From positions 391,194 to 455,193 of the forward strand of contig CAWHXP010000002.1 of the NCBI GenBank assembly GCA_963833425.1: 64,000 bases of DNA, read 5' to 3'. Source of the DNA: an uncultured Methanosarcinaceae archaeon. GTDB taxonomy: Archaea; Halobacteriota; Methanosarcinia; Methanosarcinales; Methanosarcinaceae. The position numbers were made by a program, and so were the translations under genes. Numbering within the stretch: position 1 is the stretch's first letter; each line of letters begins with the position of its first letter. The notes under the pieces are model-generated. The model searched no databases, was not told the origin of the DNA, and was given only the letters and a program-made list of their open reading frames with translations. Below, in pieces: positions 43,751 through 60,493 of this stretch.

Positions 43751-44242
43751 TTGGAGGGCAAAAAATATAGGGCACTTGGAGAGAATTGTCAGGCAGTTTC
43801 AGAAGTATTAGGACAGGTGTTCATGATAGCTATAGTAGTATTAGCTTTCTCGTCGATAGCAATTACTATATTTTCGGATGCTGTAGTCATAAATCCTCCT
43901 CATAAGCAGCATACATACATTTCTGAAAGAATTTACACCGATGCCGATATTATACAGATATTGCACAGTGGGGGAGAAGCCATTAACCTGAAAGCAATCA
44001 AGATCATACTCAGTGTCAATGGAAAGTTGGCTAAGTTTAATGTGTCCGATCCCAGTGTTAAGATTTTGAATTCGAGAGGTTCTGCGTCTAATAATGGTTT
44101 TCTGATGCTAGGTGACTGTATAGAAATCAATATGAGACAACTTGGAATTTATCTAAAGGATAACGATACAGTTAATATGTATCTCGTGAACACTAAATCT
44201 GGCCAGGTAATCCAGAGGGCGGAACTCCATGGGAGAAAATGA
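43751..44242 (+). CDS. Archaeal type IV pilin-like protein
   Basis: QA|VSEVLGQVFMIAIVV; ILHSGGE. Confidence 0.85.
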   Translation: MEGKKYRALGENCQAVSEVLGQVFMIAIVVLAFSSIAITIFSDAVVINPPHKQHTYISERIYTDADIIQILHSGGEAINLKAIKIILSVNGKLAKFNVSDPSVKILNSRGSASNNGFLMLGDCIEINMRQLGIYLKDNDTVNMYLVNTKSGQVIQRAELHGRK

Positions 44243-44293
44243 AAAAAGAAAAACAAGAGGAGATTCTATTTTAAAATCACACGAAGTCCCTTT

Positions 44294-45232
44294 ATGAAAA
44301 TCAGAAAGATTAGAAGCTGTGGAGAGGTCATTAAGAACTTATCAAACTCGGAATCGGCAGCATCCACAGTCATTGCTGCAGTACTACTGCTAAGCATCCT
44401 ATTTACCATATTTGCAGTAGTAAGAATTGCGTATGTTCCTGAATGGAAAGCTGATGCTGAACAGTCACATATGAGTGAAGTCCAGAAGGATATGACAGGA
44501 TTAAAATCAACAATAGATATGATTATTTTTCTTACGGCTACAAACACAAGTTATTCAGCCCGACCTCCCTTAACGATTCCATTTAGCATGGGTGGGGGAG
44601 AAATATCTATTCTAGAACCCTCAAAATCGAGCGGGACGCTGTCGGTAAATACAGAATCATACAAGATGACCATAATCCCAACAGTAGGTAATGAAACATC
44701 TATCAACTCTAGCATAATTACCTATCATTCTAACAATAGACAATTTGTGGATCAGGTTTTCAGATATGAAAACGGAGCTGTTATTCTTGTCCAAGGCGAC
44801 AGATCATTGATGACGCAGTTTCCATCATTATTCAGTATAAATCAAATTGGTGCACATAACTATAATGTTTTGATTCAAGCAATCAACTTATCAGGAAATT
44901 CAGATTCCATTTCTTCGGAGACATATACTTATTTGAGATTGACTGGAAATCACCCTAATACCATAGATTTAGGAAATATTAACTCATTTGACTGTATAAT
45001 TTCCACTAAATATCCGGATGCTTGGAAGTCGTATTTCAAAGGAAATCTCAATGAAATCTCTAAAGAAACAGGTCTTAAGTATGGCACAGATTTCGCACTT
45101 GACCCAAAAGACTACTCAGACAAGGTACTTTTAAAGTTTCTTGCTGGCAGCAAAAACCAAAACCATTACAGACTTTCGATAAGAGAATATGTTATCACAG
45201 CAGAAATTGGAGCAAGGAACAGTTTTAATTAA
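44294..45232 (+). CDS. Pilin-like surface protein with class III-type signal
   Basis: ESAASTVIAAVLLLSIL..YVPEWK; RYENGAVILVQ. Confidence 0.75.
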   Translation: MKIRKIRSCGEVIKNLSNSESAASTVIAAVLLLSILFTIFAVVRIAYVPEWKADAEQSHMSEVQKDMTGLKSTIDMIIFLTATNTSYSARPPLTIPFSMGGGEISILEPSKSSGTLSVNTESYKMTIIPTVGNETSINSSIITYHSNNRQFVDQVFRYENGAVILVQGDRSLMTQFPSLFSINQIGAHNYNVLIQAINLSGNSDSISSETYTYLRLTGNHPNTIDLGNINSFDCIISTKYPDAWKSYFKGNLNEISKETGLKYGTDFALDPKDYSDKVLLKFLAGSKNQNHYRLSIREYVITAEIGARNSFN

Positions 45233-50392: not shown

Positions 50393-51589
50393 ATGGCCCG
50401 AAATATAAAAGTCGAAGAGCTTTTGCGAACTCCGATTGAGAAACAACAAATAGAGCTTGTAGAACGCAAAGGGATAGGGCATCCTGACAGTATATCAGAT
50501 GGATTGGCAGAAGACGTAAGCCGCGCACTATGTAGGGAATACATCAGCAAATGTGGGGTTGTACTCCATCACAATACCGATGAAACTCAGATTGTAGCTG
50601 GAAGATCGTGTCCCAAATTTGGGGGGGGAGAAGTACTGCAGCCAATATATATTCTATTGGTGGGCAGAGCTACAAAAGAGTTTGAAGGTGTCGAACTTGC
50701 TACCGAGTCTGTAGCTCTTCAAGCTGCAAGGAAATACCTTAAAAATACTCTTGTGAATGTTGACCTTGATAGAGATGTAATCATGGACTGCAAACTCGGA
50801 ACAGGTTCTTCAGACCTAAGGGATGTATTCAAAAGAGACAGGGTTCCGATTGCAAATGATACTTCCTTCGGTGTTGGACATGCTCCGTTTTCTGAGCTTG
50901 AAAATCTTGTCTACAATACGGAAAGGCAACTTCTCACAGACCTGAAATCTCGCATTCCTGGAATCGGAGAGGATATGAAGGTCATGGGACTTCGGGATGG
51001 AGAAGATATAACCCTTACAATATGCAGTGGCATGATTGGGAAATATATCGACGACTTGAGTAGTTATATAAGCATAATTGAAGAGATGAAGGATTATGTA
51101 GGGGGACTTGCAACTCGTTACACTGAACGAGATGTGAAAGTTTTCATTAATACAGGAGATAACCTGGAAACAAGTAGTGTTTTCCTTACGGTAACCGGAA
51201 CTTCAGCTGAAATGGGGGATGATGGTTCCGTTGGGCGTGGAAACCGCTGCAATGGCTTGATAACACCAAATAGGCCTATGAGTATGGAAGCTACAAGTGG
51301 AAAAAATCCTATCAACCATATCGGGAAAATTTACAACCTTTTAGCGACTCAAATCTCCCATGATATTATAAGAAAAGTTCCAGAAGTACAAGAAGTCTAT
51401 GTTAGACTGCTGTCCCAGATCGGAAAACCCATTGACAAGCCACTTGTGGCAAGTGCTCAGATTATCCCTAAAGAAAATGCATCCTTTGAAAAGGTTAAAG
51501 TGGAAGCTGAAGTTGTAATTGATGACTGGTTTTCCAATGTGACAAAGATTACAGAAATGGTGATTAAGGGGGAATTAAACACTTTCTAG
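50393..51589 (+). CDS. mat: Archaeal S-adenosylmethionine synthetase
   Basis: [35 protein letters not shown]. Confidence 0.97.
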
Positions 51590-51769: not shown

Positions 51770-52184
51770 ATGTGTCTGTAAAAGGGTATATTAGATATTA
51801 TTTTAGTACGAATTATCGTCAAAAATTTTGTTAGGACAATGGAATCGTCAACTGCTTTAAAAGTACTTATACAAATTATTTAAGTTCATATATGCTTTTA
51901 TGCATGGTATATAAGTTACTTGTAAAAATCAGAGATTTGATCGAAATCATATGAAATATATCTTTTTTGAAATTGGTAACTGTTTGTTTTGTGCATGGTA
52001 TGTCGGTACCGACGTGATCATGTACATCTTTTCATTTGTGATGAACCAAAATATCTTCTTCAAGAGCGATGCAGATAGTAAAACTATCACATCAAGATAA
52101 ATCTTTAAAGAATAGTCTGAGATTAAAAAAAATTCTGTTTTGTGAACTTTGGAATGTTGAAGATTACATCGGAACTGTTTGTAG
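51770..52184 (+). mobile_element. IS200-type tnpA remnant cut by IS6
   Basis: DHVHL, ICDEPKY and SRAMQIVK fragments; EDYIGTV ends at the IS6 inverted repeat. Confidence 0.65.
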
Positions 52185-52852
52185 GGTCCGTTGCAAAAAT
52201 CTCAGAATAAGCACGTAATTATACGGATGATGAACAAAAGTCAAAATATCCGAGAAAAATGTATCAATATTACAGAACTATTCCAAATAATTGATTGGTG
52301 TATTTAGCTTCATTAAGACCAGAGTAATTTAGATTCTTGATTTGTCCTTTTTTAATCATATTCAAAGCTTCAATTCCTTTTAAAACCTTACTCTCAGAGC
52401 GAAAAGACTGAAAGCTTAGCATTGGAGCAATTATCCGTTTGATAGACCTATGATCTTGTTCTACAATGTTATTCAAATACTTGACTTGTCTAATTTCAAC
52501 CCTTTTGGACAACTTCTTTTCATTTTTCAGTCCATCTATAGCAGAGGGATAAGCCGGATTCTTCAACGGTTATTACTCTTGGAATTTGATTATGATTAGA
52601 ACTCAAAACTTTCTTAAAGAATCTCTTCGCTACTTTTCGATTTCGTTTTACACTTAACATGAAATCAATTGTATCTCCATTTGAATCAACTGCTCGGTAA
52701 AAATATTTCCATTTACCTTTTACTTTGATATAAGTTTCATCAACTCTCCATGATCGTTTGTTGGTCTTAAATGTCTTCTTATCTTCTTTTCTATTTCAGG
52801 AGAATATTGATGCACCCATCTCATTATAGTACTGTGATCAATTTGAATTCCT
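52185..52852 (-). mobile_element. IS6-family element, truncated and frameshifted transposase
   Basis: End GGTCCGTTGCAAA; WRVDETYIKVKGKWKYFYRAVDS; KYLNNIVEQDHR. Confidence 0.9.
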
Positions 52853-53121
52853 CACAAATAATAGTTTCTTACTTATATTTCGCTATACATTATATTCTCT
52901 GAATAATAATACTCTGATGGTACAATTAAAAAACAATTAAATCGGCAAATAATATAATAAGTAAATTTAAAAAATGGAATAGTCCTTCAAAAACTAAACC
53001 AGAGAATCAATTGGTAAATCAAAATTTATTCAGTGCACTTGCCGGTTGGAAGTAAATTGAAAAACTAATAGTCTTAAAAAAAATTGTATCAAACGGAATA
53101 AAAGTTGGAGTGTATACAAAT

Positions 53122-53478
53122 ATGGGGAAACAAAAATTTGACAGAATGAAAAAAACACTTAGCATTCTCATGCTAGTCTTTGTAGTAGTGCCATTGACAG
53201 CTGTGGCAGTGAGCGCAGCTTTTGGTAACGGTGGCGGTCATCACGGTGGTCACGGCTTTGGCGGCCGAGGCGGCTTCGGAGGCTTTGACGGCGGCTTTGG
53301 TGGCGGCTGGGGCGGCTGGGGTGGACCTGGTTTTGGCTGGGGCGATCCATTCGGATTTTATCCACCTGCACCCTATGGAGCAGGAATGGGAAGTTGTGCC
53401 TGTGGACCTTATGGATGCTTCTGTGCTCCTGACTACACGTACCTTACACAGTGTATCATAGCCGACAACGGCTGGTGA
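53122..53478 (+). CDS. Small secreted Gly/aromatic-rich, Cys-containing peptide (copy 1)
   Basis: GGAG RBS; signal peptide; GGPGFGWG.PFG.YPPAPYG, CACGPYGCFC, IADNGW. Confidence 0.85.
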   Translation: MGKQKFDRMKKTLSILMLVFVVVPLTAVAVSAAFGNGGGHHGGHGFGGRGGFGGFDGGFGGGWGGWGGPGFGWGDPFGFYPPAPYGAGMGSCACGPYGCFCAPDYTYLTQCIIADNGW

Positions 53479-53818
53479 AAGTAAACGGCTGTTTCGCCAA
53501 TGATCTCGTTAGCTTGTTCTGACTAGCTGAAACATGAATTAACCTATCTCGGAAAGCTAAATTTGCTAAAAAAATAGGATTTAAGCATTTGATGTACAAA
53601 ATCATGTGCTATCCATGTTGTGGCACCAATTAATCACAAATGCAAAGTTTAGCGAGACGAGCATGGAAGAAAAATGGGAGGCAAAAAAGAGCTTTTTGTA
53701 CTTCCTTTCCTCCGTGTTTTTCGTGATTATACAATTCCATATGACTTTAATATCTAATATTCCGAAATTTCTGATAAATCCCTGAATTTTGTCTATATTT
53801 ATAAACAGTATAATTTAT

Positions 53819-54807
53819 GGCTCTGTAGAAATCCTTAATTTGATGCAAATTGTTTCTATAACTTTTTTGTTTATGTTACATACTATTAATTTAATTTTAA
53901 TCTCTTTCACTTGATAACGGAATTCCCTTGCACTCAGTGTTTCTCCTAATTTTCTTTAAACTACAGAAAATATAGTCTCCACAATATTTCTTTGATTATA
54001 TTTAATTCTGTCAAAGATCAGGTTCAATTGTTTTCTATATTTTCCTCTTATTCTCTTCCTTTTTCTCTCTCTTACAAGTATAATTGAATCTGCTTTGATT
54101 TCTTCTCTAATTATAGAAAGTATTTTTTCTGAATCATATCCTATCTATTACATAACAATCAGACTTTCTATCCTATTTGATTGCCTTATCAGAGCATTTG
54201 CATGTTTGATTTCATGGTCTGCTTTTTGACTAATTTTCCATCCCAACATTACCTTTTTACCGGTATCTACTGATATTGAAGTTTTCAGGAAGCTTCTTCG
54301 AAGCTTCCTTGTCCCTCTGGAATAATAATAACTTGCATATGAACTCGTAAATCTTGTTGCATCGTTCGCTGCAACAGAGACATTTTCTCCATATGAGTAA
54401 AACAGCTTTAATATCCTTGACAGAAGAAGGTTACACAGAGAGGAGGGAATCCTGGTTACAAACATTTGAAGGGTAATGAAATGTGGAATCTTATCAAGGA
54501 TAAGTTTTTCTTTTAAATCGTTTATAAGGTCAATAAGTTCTACAAAATCTCGATAATCTGTACTATTCAATAAAATCAGTATAAGAAGCTGATGCTGGGT
54601 ATAAATGTGTTTTGAATACTTGCAGGAATGAAGCTTCATTCTCGAAGACTGAACGGTTTCGAGGTTGGTATCAACAAATTTAATGTACTTATTAAACTTC
54701 AATATGAATGTTACTTCGTTTTTAGTGAAAAAATAAGAAGAATATTATAACTAACTATTTATAATATTATAGTATAAAAGTTCAATTTAGAGCATTTCTA
54801 CATAGCC
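53819..54807 (-). mobile_element. IS5-family element with decayed transposase
   Basis: TIRs GGCTCTGTAGAAAT / ATTTCTACATAGCC; 7-bp target duplication AATTTAT; ORF with YTQHQLL and KTSISVD. Confidence 0.9.
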
Positions 54808-55566
54808 AATTTATGTATAATTCATATGCAAATTACGGAATATAGGAATTTATCAAAATTTTTTCTAGCATCCACGAATAGTCGATTAAAAAATTTTTTT
54901 GAATTCACATCTTTAAGTTCGAAGCAAAATTTATCCAACTTCAGAAGATACCGAATAAAATAATAACTTTTCCCAATTTAGTATTAATTATTCTTTTAAA
55001 TAATGATTGTAGAAATAAACCAATTTATCATGATTTGCCATTTTCACTGAAGATGATATATCGCCTAGATTTTGAAAAATATATGCAAATTTATAACTCA
55101 TTTACCAATTTGCATTAGATATGTTGCCAAATATAATATAAAATTGTATTTTATAAAGCTACATATAGTAACAGTGTATTTTTCAAAGTAGTTTTACTGA
55201 AAATAGTGATTAATTATGAAATAATACTTCATTATGAAATAAATATAAGATACTTGTTTATATAAATTCAGTTTAAGTCAAAAATTGTTTCTGCTAAATG
55301 CTAAATATTAGTTTCTTACGTATACTTCGCTATACATTATATTCTCTGAATAATAATACTCTGATAGCGCTATCTGAAAACATTTAACTCGGCAAATGAT
55401 ATAGTATGAAAATTAAGCAACTGAAATCTACTAAAAAAAATCAAACTAGACACTTTGTTGGAGAGATACTATTCGTGCGATATACTTGCCGATTGGAAGT
55501 AAATTGGAAAATCAGAAGTCTTCAAAAATAGTATCAAACGGAATGAAAGTTGGAGTGTATACAAAC

Positions 55567-55905
55567 ATGGGGAAACAAAAATTTGACAGAATGAAAAAAA
55601 CACTTAGCATTCTCATGCTAGTCTTTGTAGTAGTGCCATTGACAACTGTGGCAGCGAACGCAGCTTCTGGTTCTGCTTATCATGGTCACGGTAGTCATGG
55701 TAACGGTGGTCATGGCCACGGCGGTTCTGGTCACGGCGACTTTGGCGGACCTGGTTTTGGATGGGGCGGTCCATTCGGATATTACCCACCTGCTCCCTAT
55801 GGCATGAGCGGTGACAACGATGTCGTATGCGGACCTTATGGATGCATGTGGAACCAAGATACCCACTATATTGTGAAGAATACCATAGCAGAAAATGGTT
55901 GGTAA
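55567..55905 (+). CDS. Small secreted Gly/His-rich, Cys-containing peptide (copy 2)
   Basis: First 26 codons identical to copy 1; GGPGFGWGGPFGYYPPAPYG, CGPYGC, IAENGW. Confidence 0.85.
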   Translation: MGKQKFDRMKKTLSILMLVFVVVPLTTVAANAASGSAYHGHGSHGNGGHGHGGSGHGDFGGPGFGWGGPFGYYPPAPYGMSGDNDVVCGPYGCMWNQDTHYIVKNTIAENGW

Positions 55906-56170
55906 AAATAAATGGTTGTTTTGCAAGTTATACTCGATAACTGATTGCTGACTAATCGAATCATGAACTGATCTGTCTAATAGATCTAAATTGGGTACGA
56001 AATAGGACTTACGCATTTTAGGTACAAAATCCAGTACAGTATACATTGTGATTTGAACTTATATTTTAGGCAATTTAATTTTTATTGCTACCTATTTTTT
56101 AGTTCATTGGCGTAAGTCCTATAGACTGTAAAACTAATTATAAAATATAATTGAATTTATTTCAATCGAA

Positions 56171-57826: not shown

Positions 57827-58304
57827 CAAATAACAGGCACAGATAATCCAAAAGGCTTCTCAATTTATTCTTTTGACCATTATTCCATCATAATTTTAAG
57901 CAGTAAGAATTTCATTGATTTAGTTTTTTAAAACCGTTCCAAAACTAATCAGTGAATTGCCATCGAAGACTCAAATGTAACTTTGATCACGGATGTCAAA
58001 TTGCCTCTGTAGTAACTTCACTGACCAAACAAATTTGATGGTCGAAATTAAAACAATAGAGTTTCTATAGATATGATGATGAAATTTTAGATTTTAAAAA
58101 TTTGTTTATATCATAAAAATGTGATTTTGTCGCATCTGAATCAACAAGTGATTTTTGGGTTCCGGTTTAGGATTCATTGATACAGCATCTTTTTGCGATC
58201 TTTCGAACGTGCGTGAGGTATGAAGGCATTTATGCACAAATAAAACATATCAATATAGTTTCAAAATTATTGCAAAAACTTCATTGTATCAAAGTCTTGG
58301 TGTT

Positions 58305-58570
58305 GAATTCTGTTGCAAGCAATGGGATCTGTTAGCGCCACCACTCTGTAAAAAAGTACAAATAATTATTCAAAATTGGTTATATAAATTAGATTAGATT
58401 ATTTTTCTTATATTTTTTCCTGAAATTTTCAATATCTTTTGTAACGACATCGAAGTTGTACCACGATCAACAGTTCCGATATAATCTTCATAATCCACAT
58501 TTCATCACCACATAATTGTTTTCGACCTCGAGTTATTCTTTAAAGACATTTCTTGCTTTGATATTTAATA
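58305..58570 (-). mobile_element. IS200-type tnpA 3' remnant
   Basis: ARNVFKE, EDYIGTVDRGTTSMS; nucleotide similarity to 52090-52180. Confidence 0.55.
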
Positions 58571-58797
58571 TATAGGATTTATATTCCCCTTCTATTTTCA
58601 CGAGTAGTTACATATAATTCATAAAAAAATGAATATATCATTTATAAGAAAATGACTAAATTTAGATGGTTATCTAATTCTCTTTGAATACAAATTTGCA
58701 ATATCTTTAGAATATATTGTCCAGGCTGTAATTATTTAATTTATTCACTTTTATCTCACTTTTCATTGATTCGTTTCTTCTTTTTGTTTTCGTCTTC

Positions 58798-58817
58798 CAC
58801 AAAGGATTTATATATTA
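58798..58817 (+). promoter_or_regulatory. Candidate BRE/TATA promoter of the rpl3 operon
   Basis: Purine-rich CAAAGGA followed by TTTATATA. Confidence 0.55.
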
Positions 58818-59470
58818 GATGTGCTATTTACAGGCAATGCACATCAAAGTTTGAAGTTTCAAGCACTTTCGTGTTTGAAATTATTAAACAAAATCAATGT
58901 GTTACTTAATGCTAAGTTCCTGGAAGCTTCCGGGAAATTGGGTTTTGCCGTTGATTAGGTAAAATTTTCTGTATTTGAAGATAATTCCAGTGAGAAAAGT
59001 CGGATCAACATGAGTGTCAAAGGGCCAATGCTTTGAAACGCCCGCTTTTAGCGCTATGAATGCGCCTAAAATCGCACGAAACTGTTAGGTTTTCGATGAG
59101 TTGCGGTTGCAGTTGTTGAATGCTGAAGTTTCAAGTAATATTACTGGTTACTGAATGCTGAAGTTTCTAATATATTGCTAGATGTTTCAAATCAGGGCCG
59201 AATACCTGGATTAGGGTCTGCCAGGATCGTAAAATCGGTCCCTTAAGCGTATGCTCCTGCAGAGGCTGTGGGAAAGGGCCGAATGCAGATGCCTGAAGGA
59301 ATTAGGGTACCGGAAGTATAAAGCTCTGGTCTGCTCGAGGCTTTTTTTTGCCAGGCAGGTCTGAAAGATATCCCTCCCTACCTGGTAGCGTTTGGGGAAT
59401 CCAGTGCGTTTTTCTTTTGTCACTTTGTTGAGTCGACCGGAGGGGCTGGTATTTAAATTGAAATTTATGG
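58818..59470 (+). ncRNA. Candidate long structured 5' leader of the r-protein operon
   Basis: No credible ORF; several stems and a twice-repeated AGGGCCGAAT...ATTAGGGT motif. Confidence 0.55.
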
Positions 59471-59479
59471 AGTAGAAAT

Positions 59480-60493
59480 ATGGCAAGCATACACCGACCA
59501 AAACGAGGTTCACTCGCATTCAGTCCACGAAAAAGGGCAAAAGGCCACATTCCACGGTTCAGGGCCTGGCCGGAGGCTATAGGTGAACCAAGGCTACAAA
59601 GTTTTGCAGGGTACAAGGTTGGAATGACACACGTAATCATGGTTGATGACACAAAGAACAGCCTTACACAGGGCATGGAGATTTCCGCACCCGTGACTGT
59701 AATTGAAACTCCCGCAATCAGGGTTGCAGCCATCAGGGCGTATATAGAAGATAGTGTAGGAGAGAGGGCAATCGCTGAAGTGTGGGCAGCAGATCTTGAT
59801 CCTGAACTCAAGCGTAGGATCCATATCCCAAAAGCTGAAAATTTGGTTGAAACCCTTGAAACTATTGAGAAAATGATTGAAGAAGGTAAGGTAAGCGATA
59901 TCAGAGCTATTACATATACTCTGCCAAAGAGCCTTACAGGCATTCCTAAAAAAGTGCCCGATATTATGGAATCCGGAATCAGCGCAAGGGATCTCAATAC
60001 TAAATTCGAGTATACAAAGTCAATTCTAGGCACCCTCGTAAGAATTACCGATGTTTTCAAAACTGGAATATTGGTTGATACAGCCGCGATTACTATCGGA
60101 AAAGGTACCCAGGGTCCTGTCAAACGTTGGGGTATCCAGCTGATGAAGGGCAAGCACTCAAGACAGGGTAGCCTGAGACAGATAGGTACTCTTGGTCCAT
60201 GGCATCCGGCCCACGTTTCCTGGAGAGTCCCGCAGATGGGTCAGATGGGATATCACCAAAGGACCGAATTCAACAAACGCATCCTTAAGATCGGATCCAA
60301 TGCATCAGAAGTCACTCCAGATGGCGGTTTCCTTAACTACGGTCTTCTACGAGGAGATTATGTGTTGATCAAAGGTAGTGTTCCTGGATCTTCCAAGAGA
60401 CTTATCAGACTCAGGGATCCAATTAGGGCAAAGAAAGTTGACCTTGGAGAACCAAATATCGTCCATATAAGCAGGGAATCAAAACAAGGGTGA
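59480..60493 (+). CDS. rpl3: 50S ribosomal protein L3
   Basis: [33 protein letters not shown]. Confidence 0.99.

Follow-up and report, generated by a model that had tools for sequence, protein, structure and literature searches.

In conotoxin-like gene superfamilies, a conserved signal-peptide module is joined to divergent, Cys-containing mature parts throughout a multigene family. The class II glycine-rich proteins of plants and the shepherin precursor have a signal peptide, a Gly-rich region with aromatic residues or His, and a short Cys-containing domain at the C-terminus. Small proteins outside the cytoplasm can also take part in transport: NikK and NikL are accessory extracytoplasmic components of the Nik/Cbi energy-coupling factor (ECF) transporters for nickel and cobalt. 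Here we describe a family of small archaeal proteins that invites comparison with these systems. Two of its genes, A and B, lie in tandem in a 64,000-nucleotide stretch of DNA, which we call the window, from an uncultured Methanosarcinaceae archaeon, a Methanosarcina of the peat type (assembly GCA_963833425.1, contig CAWHXP010000002.1, positions 391,194 to 455,193 of the forward strand).

A preliminary description of the locus saw in these genes an invariant leader and a variable core, the logic of the precursors of bacteriocins or of ribosomally synthesized and post-translationally modified peptides (RiPPs). We arrive at a different reading. The account that we think probable, with some reserve, is that A and B, as tandem paralogs, belong to a lineage-restricted family exported by the general secretory (Sec) pathway, in which a generic leader and a variable arm precede a conserved C-terminal module, and that the core of B was replaced by gene conversion.

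A three-part protein family in Methanosarcina

Read from the conserved ATG, gene A (53122-53478, + strand) encodes 118 amino acids and gene B (55567-55905, + strand) 112; the two proteins are 59% identical over 119 alignment columns. Codons 1-26 are the same in both, which confirms the 78 identical nucleotides reported earlier, and divergence begins at codon 27 (GCT in A, ACT in B). The matching DNA that had been noticed upstream and downstream of the two coding sequences was also found, although the repeat is longer than first stated. Its paired segments are 52856-53081 with 55303-55528 (75% identity), 53079-53226 with 55524-55671 (95%), 53311-53378 with 55735-55802 and 53401-53423 with 55828-55850 (87% each) and, downstream, 53572-53622 with 56000-56050 (75%). 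Both genes stand out as islands with a GC content of 0.51-0.59 in DNA of 0.22-0.35.

The proteins consist of a leader of about 32 residues, a variable low-complexity arm and a C-terminal module of 44 residues, encoded in gene A by 53122-53217, 53218-53343 and 53344-53475 and in gene B by 55567-55662, 55663-55770 and 55771-55902. We aligned A, B and the third paralog of this genome with 34 of 55 relatives found in the protein search described below; the other 21 were excluded as truncated, frameshifted or near-duplicate sequences. The conserved portion is the C-terminus, and the variable portion is the arm in the middle. The arm, which is predicted to be disordered, is made of Gly with Phe, Trp or Tyr (as in A) or of Gly with His (as in B); in some members it is a very different polar stretch, QNSNTSSVGPMVGP or QNYNN..PYGAPTLYQQNN. 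At the DNA level the arm consists of tandem repeats of 9, 12 and 15 nucleotides, those of 9 and 12 lying at 53253-53321 in gene A and those of 15 at 55680-55736 in gene B.

The module has as its invariant elements YPPAPYG, a CGPYGC loop, one Tyr and a C-terminal Trp, and a 22-sequence alignment has 15 invariant columns in it. The conserved blocks that had been pointed out by eye (GPGFGWG.PFG.YPPAPYG, CGPYGC and the terminal NGW) are all present. There are two forms. Type 1, found in A, reads SCACGPYGCFC, has 4-5 Cys and carries the pattern C-x-C-x4-C-x-C; type 2, found in B, reads V[VI]CGPYGC.[WL]N and has 2 Cys. The counts given at the outset, 5 Cys in A and 2 in B, were correct. After the predicted cleavage, the mature proteins would be 80-86 residues long and acidic; mature A is 37% Gly and 21% Phe, Trp or Tyr, and is acidic rather than cationic (K+R 1, D+E 4). 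AlphaFold2 (AF2) modelled the full protein (predicted local distance difference test score, pLDDT, 54) as a signal helix and a disordered arm followed by a hairpin in which two Cys flank GPYG and by a short C-terminal helix; for the module alone (pLDDT 53) it returned only the hairpin at CGPYGC and the short helix.

How widespread are these proteins? Among 5.8 billion clustered proteins we found 55 relatives (E ≤ 0.01), none of which has a Pfam domain or any name other than 'hypothetical protein'. Full-length members occur in five genomes, namely this one (G000, three copies), G129, G152, G153 and G157, and C-terminal fragments in a sixth, G128. Counting the fragments, the family is present in 6 of the 59 genomes of the genus and in none of 15 other genera. 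A search of one genome per species, covering 185,579 species, returned 27 loci in 5 assemblies, all of them Methanosarcina sp. or metagenome-assembled genomes of uncultured Methanosarcinaceae. Judged by matches to the C-terminal module, pseudogenes included, the five genomes hold 3, 8, 11, 7 and 10 copies. Of 31 distinct copies that were extracted, 5 carry stops or frameshifts and one has the first invariant Cys changed to Tyr; 25 intact homologues from the five genomes were available for the analyses of selection.

A profile of the module had 12 matches (E ≤ 1e-3) among 1.84 billion representative proteins, and ten of these are family members or fragments. Of the other two, P0065 looks like a translated repeat array and P0062 looks unrelated. 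P0062 is a curious protein in its own right: its 192 residues hold four C-G-[PG]-[YW]-G-C-A-C-N motifs with spacers ending in KR, and it looks like the precursor of a multi-copy peptide. Its likeness to the Cys loop of the family may be convergent.

No named family was recovered in Pfam-A (best E 0.054 at 14 bits, where the cutoff is 28.2), in NCBIfam (best E 0.23) or in a sequence profile search of the PDB (best E 0.062). In the ESM Atlas the best scores, 0.89, belong to unnamed clusters, and BA14K follows at 0.79 as a lead only. We did not find the family described in the literature; the portions of PMC4158269 that bear on the subject report only other Methanosarcina expansions. The earlier suggestion of an undescribed secreted archaeal family is borne out by these results. 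It is, by the searches made, an undescribed, lineage-restricted multigene family of small exported proteins, and it belongs to a familiar general kind, the lineage-specific secreted low-complexity protein.

Leader, upstream unit and the mosaic copy

The leader has the parts expected of a signal peptide. Its n-region, MGKQKFDRMKK, has a net charge of +4, its h-region has a mean Kyte-Doolittle hydropathy of 2.3-2.5, and AF2 models residues 4-31 as a helix. All 25 intact genes encode Ala at -1; at -3, 19 of them encode Ala, 5 Val and one Thr. Other routes left no mark: there is no twin arginine of the twin-arginine translocation (Tat) type in the n-region (it reads ..FDRMKK..); there is no lipobox Cys, position +1 being Ala in A and B, and Gln, Arg, Asp or others in the relatives, but never Cys; and there is no C-terminal helix of the PGF-CTERM/archaeosortase type, the proteins ending in ..IA[DE]NGW with no hydrophobic stretch. 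By these features the leader is a signal peptide of the Sec/signal peptidase I type, 32 residues long, and the view that the proteins are exported and processed is strongly supported by the sequences.

The same leader is not peculiar to the family. Protein A, searched against its own genome at E ≤ 10, matched 65 sites, only 3 of them over the full length; the rest match in the leader, in some cases together with a Gly-rich stretch. Inspection of 57 of the 65 showed mostly small open reading frames (ORFs) whose low-complexity mature parts are rich in His, Cys, Gly, Trp or Tyr. When five leader-bearing proteins were scanned, four had Pfam matches: two BD-FAE alpha/beta hydrolases, a cupredoxin and a pentapeptide-repeat protein. 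Profile matches at E ≤ 1e-5 were found in 49 of 177 Methanosarcinaceae genomes and in 47 of the 58 other genomes of the genus. Among the matches listed outside the five genomes and the C-terminal fragments of G128, only the leader and the Gly part were matched. The leader is, by its distribution, the generic export signal of the genus. Leader and tail had been proposed as probes for the family across the Methanosarcinales; the leader did prove widespread in the genus, and full-length members were confined to the five genomes, with C-terminal fragments in G128.

The genome holds dozens of further small ORFs in which a similar signal peptide is followed by an extremely His-, Cys/Gly-, Gly/Trp- or Gly/Tyr-rich mature part without a database name (examples are C5:220195-220386, C7:71702-72001, C9:2857-3003, C20:103725-103931 and C2:252599-252781). 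Several of them end in a Cys-bounded, Trp-rich, hairpin-like motif, C.W.W....W.C.

Conservation extends upstream of the coding sequence. An alignment with 24 other family genes has conserved blocks at about -275 to -230 and about -85 to -60, plus GGAGTG..ATG. It marks out a conserved 5' module, holding a candidate promoter, a long 5' untranslated region (UTR) and a ribosome-binding site, at 52842-53121 (+) for gene A and at 55287-55566 (+) for gene B; over the last ~100 nucleotides before the ATG the B copy is 94-100% identical to that of A. An nhmmer search with a 310-nucleotide alignment of upstream region plus leader located this 5' unit before other genes of the genome as well. It precedes the pentapeptide-repeat gene (C7:122127-122404, E 6e-17) and, as a weaker match, a BD-FAE esterase (C7:344461-344683, E 0.0027); further sites are C7:71371-71616 and C11:134258-134500, and a dead, truncated copy lies beside an insertion sequence (IS) fragment at C3:277617-277923. 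These matches suggest that the ~300-nucleotide 5' unit is a portable module of promoter, UTR and signal peptide. RNAalifold predicted zero base pairs in the 5' region. A candidate stem, TCGGCAA/TTGCCGA, was set aside as indistinguishable from shuffled sequences (27 and 39 of 500 shuffles did as well), and a promoter scan was discarded because it models sigma-70 and is inapplicable to an archaeon.

These results bear on the idea that the genes encode a secreted antagonistic peptide (an archaeocin) or a RiPP-type precursor, in which the leader would direct the export or maturation of diversifying toxic cores. Several traits would suit such a role. This multi-copy family is confined to a subclade, its arms and C-terminal types are shuffled, pseudogenes are frequent, and the C-terminal hairpin is predicted to be bounded by Cys; there is also a weak, below-threshold Pfam match to 'Fungus-induced' (E 1.3). 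Eukaryotic antimicrobial peptides include Gly/His-rich ones, which the Gly/His-rich arms resemble. However, a leader that is a Sec signal found on esterases, a cupredoxin and dozens of unrelated ORFs does not fit the leader/core logic of RiPP or bacteriocin precursors, and the most conserved part of the protein is not the leader but the C-terminal 44 residues, which are under purifying selection. The mature proteins are acidic. In a neighbour analysis that clustered ORFs of at least 70 amino acids over 28 loci, no maturase or other modification enzyme, ABC exporter or immunity gene recurred, and the interval between metK and rpl3 encodes no maturase, just as had been observed at first. A 59-residue hydrophobic ORF downstream of A (53606-53785) was considered as an immunity gene and rejected because it is interrupted by stops in two relatives (L048 and L050), that is, it is not conserved as an ORF. 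Finally, the archaeocins in the pertinent sections of a review (PMC4609331) come only from haloarchaea and Sulfolobus. Taken together, we consider an antagonistic role decidedly unlikely.

Why, then, do A and B share a leader and differ in the core? The relatives provide the key. In G129 (locus L048) and G153 (L049), a tandem pair lies between metK and rpl3 in an interval collinear with the window; in G157 (L050) a collinear pair follows metK, the stretch examined stopping short of rpl3. The duplication therefore predates the split of at least four species. Both tandem copies in these relatives are type 1. Between the two copies, identity in the coding region is 95.9%, 100% and 92.4%, but in most of the flanks it is no more than 57-83% (in L049, as an exception, the downstream 200 nucleotides are also identical), and orthologous coding regions compared across species reach 86-87%. 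Since tandem coding regions are more alike than either their flanks or their orthologues, they evolve in concert, through gene conversion centred on the gene.

Copy B in the window has a different history. In a three-way alignment with A and the paralog on contig C12 (C12:80735-81067), the 5' flank and leader of B are 94-100% identical to A and 72-88% to the C12 gene. From codon ~30 to ~15 nucleotides past the stop the order is reversed, with 40-86% identity to A and 84-98% to the C12 gene; in the 3' flank it is reversed again, with about 70% and 30-44%. Over the whole coding region, B is 89.8% identical to the C12 gene and 70.0% to A. Informative sites put the breakpoints between 55627 and 55655 and at ~55920, and the putative conversion tract at 55655-55922 (+). 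Copy B is, on this alignment, a mosaic whose mature part was overwritten from the C12 paralog, which lies beside nifH on another contig. The identical leader and divergent core in the window thus come from gene conversion, and not from selection for hypervariability of the core. Synteny extends to the C12-type gene, which stands beside nifH in four other loci (L003, L029, L030 and L035). Shuffling is general in the family: one arm type occurs with different C-terminal types and vice versa, and adjacent genes share C-terminal types. That the family evolves by duplication, conversion and decay is strongly supported by these comparisons. A generic signal peptide combined with gene conversion can thus produce a conserved leader with a variable core; the pattern by itself should not be taken to indicate a RiPP or bacteriocin.

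Selection was estimated from the ratio of nonsynonymous to synonymous divergence (dN/dS), pooled over 300 non-independent pairs of the 25 intact genes. For the C-terminal module the proportions of synonymous and nonsynonymous differences (pS and pN) are 0.51 and 0.23, giving a dN/dS of about 0.32; for the leader they are 0.30 and 0.16, giving about 0.48. The C-terminus is therefore not drifting but under purifying selection. The preliminary description had suspected selection on the family and had named neutral drift of the cores as the finding that would tell against it; drift is not seen for the module in this per-segment analysis. The low synonymous divergence of the leader fits either conversion or a constraint at the nucleotide level.

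The same figures speak to the view that these ORFs are dispensable, turn over fast and serve no specific function, in which case chance and gene conversion would have preserved their reading frames within a region crowded with repeats and IS elements. The setting lends itself to this view: the gap around the genes is AT-rich, holds few other genes and contains IS debris, relatives have several broken copies, one 5' module of this genome (C3:277617-277923) is dead, and most of the genus lacks the family. Yet chance does not readily account for 25 intact copies in five genomes, 15 invariant residues in the module, a dN/dS of about 0.3, a syntenic position in four species, a conserved upstream module with its ribosome-binding site, and the contigs from RNA libraries that cover gene A. 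The claim that the ORFs are intact beyond chance stands, and we regard a lack of function as very improbable.

Possible roles of the exported proteins

If the account given above is right, signal peptidase I would cleave the leader, and the acidic proteins of 80-86 residues would work at the envelope, on the outer side of the cell. Docking or binding would fall to the C-terminal module, and the low-complexity arm would supply a flexible part that evolves fast.

Is gene A transcribed? Five metatranscriptome runs from two studies contain 6-7% of the sampled words of 52842-56050; run shares of 0.06-0.07 are no evidence of habitat. We compared the contigs of four of the five runs with the locus. 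Gene A is covered by contigs of 596 nucleotides (over 53107-53704) and 337 nucleotides (over 53107-53438) and by others over 53137-53427, 53409-53846 and 53409-53793. They differ from the window by a few substitutions and by in-frame deletions of 3 and 9 nucleotides in the Gly tract, and so they come from close relatives. Other contigs have a type-2 core and a 3' continuation that resembles the flank of the C12 paralog, and one covers the 3' flank of B itself (55866-56050). These data are consistent with transcription of gene A together with 5' and 3' untranslated parts; the contigs show presence, not strand, ends or level. Between 53912 and 55600 there is almost no cover in the four libraries, but this region is largely genome-specific or poorly conserved and is uninformative on DNA carry-over.

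One role that would suit such products is structural. The proteins might be adhesive components of the envelope or an extracellular matrix, the aromatic Cys-loop at the C-terminus anchoring them to envelope glycans or the S-layer and the arm self-associating. The composition of mature A, rich in Gly and aromatic residues and acidic, agrees with this idea, as do an arm that is predicted to be disordered and evolves by repeat slippage, the RNA-library contigs from two studies that cover gene A, and the dozens of other small exported Gly-, Trp-, Tyr-, His- or Cys-rich ORFs in the genome. In the relatives, tandem copies are kept 92-100% identical, which fits the amplification of an abundant product. 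Against it, the genus has the family in only five genomes of 59, with fragments in one more, so that it does not belong to the core of the envelope; stops or frameshifts are present in 5 of the 31 distinct copies, and the likeness to plant glycine-rich proteins is one of architecture, not homology. We regard a structural role as possible, though doubtful.

A second role is suggested by the neighbours. The neighbours that recur at the 28 loci are a CbiM-type gene (12 loci) and a gene for a 107-residue PDGLE-domain protein (10 loci), followed by another small exported Gly/Trp-rich family (6), nifH (4) and metK (3). Pfam identifies CbiM (PF01891, E 1.8e-58), PDGLE (PF13190) and CbiN among them and, at one locus, ZnuA with ABC partners. 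In the five genomes, 15 of the 39 matches to the C-terminal module lie within 4 kb of a CbiM match, all 15 of them in the four sister genomes; CbiM is upstream on the same strand in 11 of these, 10 times at a distance of 1221-1456 nucleotides. By a rough estimate, a few percent would be expected by chance. PDGLE matches number 4 in this genome, 6 in G152 and 4 in G157; the other 56 genomes have 1-3 each, except for one that has none.

Two observations on these loci deserve mention. Orphan nikM-PDGLE pairs, without adjoining Q or O genes, are amplified in the subclade (in this genome at C3:441763-442818, C12:107696-108751, C10:67628-68674 and C10:107574-108609; also in L025-L047), and in four other Methanosarcina the nikM-PDGLE pair is followed by an apparent nikQ (311 amino acids) and nikO/ATPase gene (about 276 amino acids), both named solely from their length and sequence. 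A second small exported family, with the pattern HGGGRWGW..C.WV.GNNW.CP..GMPYT and no Pfam match, lies divergently upstream of nikM in many loci (L028:1386-1715, L032:1365-1694 and L038:1554-1883, all on the - strand; in this genome, C10:106395-106673 and C3:443691-443966).

Methanogens need much nickel and cobalt. PMC10617489, which also gives general background on CbiMNQO in methanogens, treats the way in which they acquire the two metals in sulfidic habitats as an unsettled question. We propose that the family might capture trace metal (Ni/Co) at the cell surface and so support the NikM/PDGLE uptake components. The His-rich arms of many members and the C-x-C-x4-C-x-C of type 1 also fit a link to metal. 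Outside a strict anaerobe, Cys residues would more probably be free ligands than disulfides. A predicted complex of NikM, PDGLE and the mature L028 family protein scored 0.02, a result of 'no answer' that carries no weight either way.

Several facts weigh against what we propose. None of the three copies in this genome is near any of its eight CbiM loci, and no family gene lies downstream of its four nikM-PDGLE loci. Members free of His, those with the QNSNTSSVGPMVGP and QNYNN... arms, also adjoin nikM, and the only invariant potential ligands in the family are two Cys. A conserved upstream module of its own precedes the family gene. The adjacent arrangements could all derive from one ancestral neighbourhood that was later duplicated, so hitch-hiking is possible. 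As for the wider account, the structure models of both the full protein and the module are of low confidence, which way the conversion ran (from C12 into B or the other way round) was read from the flanks only, and contigs from RNA libraries are not proof of transcription, since DNA carry-over is possible.

We therefore hold metal capture to be tentative. It is slightly favoured because it is the sole idea with independent support from genomic context, and we set its probability no higher than that of a structural role. Bolder still is the proposal that the secreted Cys-loop mini-proteins are a new class of Ni/Co (or metal-sulfide) capture partners for the amplified orphan NikM/PDGLE of peat and soil Methanosarcina, and at the same time one branch of a genome-wide system that recombines portable 5' units with exchangeable mature-part cassettes and so diversifies the exported low-complexity proteome. 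This combined proposal is unlikely as it stands. The probability that remains after metal capture, a structural role, antagonism and lack of function belongs to some other role.

The metal idea is of interest all the same. Exported proteins encoded beside amplified genes for Ni/Co capture give a concrete, testable hypothesis on the trace-metal supply of methanogens; if true, they would amount to a protein-based route for trace metals in sulfidic, metal-poor habitats. The subclade as a whole holds dozens of small exported His-, Cys-, Gly- or aromatic-rich proteins without database names. With its 44-residue module, its clear paralog types and its near-identical sequences in environmental RNA libraries, the family offers a tractable entry to this exported small proteome.

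Setting of the locus and likeness to known systems

Genes A and B sit in a 7.9-kb gap with few genes. One border is metK (50393-51589, AdoMet_Synthase), with his genes upstream of it, and the other is the rpl3-rpl4-rpl2-rps19-rpl22-rps3 operon, which starts at 59480. The non-coding 3' flank of cassette A (53479-53805, +) is collinear with relatives at 76-80% identity, and that of cassette B (55906-56143, +) with the second cassette of L048 and L050. The cassettes are separated by a genome-specific insertion (53805-54808) that is absent from the syntenic loci and holds an ORF on the - strand (54148-54702). This ORF has no Pfam match and is a piece of a highly repeated element, with dozens of tblastn matches across the genome, many of them fragmented. 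A degraded transposase fragment of the IS6/IS240 type, found in this genome only, lies at 52270-52660 (-); its part at 52270-52566 (-) matches only positions 66-139 of the 139 of the Pfam profile DDE_Tnp_IS240, and 52183-52845 has no counterpart in L048, L049 or L050. The IS elements around the genes had been called dead. This is apt for the truncated IS240 fragment; for 54148-54702 what can be said is that it belongs to a repeated element many of whose copies are fragmented. An antisense ORF at 55618-56046 (-) was dismissed as a shadow of the Gly-rich frame: conservation tracks the + frame, and similar antisense ORFs occur in six loci.

No tRNA was found, and no Rfam family scored above threshold, the only match being a sub-threshold one to sR20 (58465-58512). 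Three other features lie farther off. A short dispersed repeat at 58049-58290, similar in look to a miniature inverted-repeat transposable element, has many copies of 74-81% identity in most genomes of the genus. The ~750 nucleotides directly upstream of rpl3 (58730-59480, +) contain no + strand ORF of at least 60 amino acids, even with TAG read through, and no Rfam match. This segment has matches in 54 of the 59 genomes of the genus, mostly at 75-87% identity among the matches listed, and might belong to the ribosomal-protein operon as a long conserved leader or as a non-coding RNA that has yet to be described. At 43751-45232 (+), two adjoining genes encode an archaeal type IV pilin N-terminal domain and DUF7289.

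How does the family compare with systems already described? RiPP and class II bacteriocin precursors and the archaeocins (the halocins and sulfolobicins in the parts of PMC4609331 that treat them) resemble it in being small secreted products with several divergent copies and a cleaved leader. The family differs in its general Sec leader, its conserved C-terminus and its acidic mature protein, and in having no maturase, dedicated transporter or immunity gene. With the Sec signal peptides of archaeal secreted proteins its leader has in common the charged n-region, the hydrophobic h-region and small residues at -3 and -1, and in this genome the same type of leader is found on ordinary exported enzymes. 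It is, however, unusually stereotyped: it is conserved at the nucleotide level together with ~280 nucleotides upstream, and the unit precedes unrelated mature parts.

The class II glycine-rich proteins of plants and the shepherin precursor are alike in architecture. No sequence relationship to them was found, the C-terminal module is a different one, and the host is an archaeon. NikK and NikL offer a parallel in position, since in four sister genomes the small exported proteins of the family are encoded directly beside nikM and PDGLE; the copies in this genome are not beside nikM, and the likeness is one of gene position. Conotoxin-like superfamilies are similar in organization, again without homology. 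In the archaeal family, by contrast, the shared module includes non-coding upstream DNA and precedes enzymes too, diversity arises through recombination and repeat slippage, and accelerated substitution is not seen, dN/dS being below 1.

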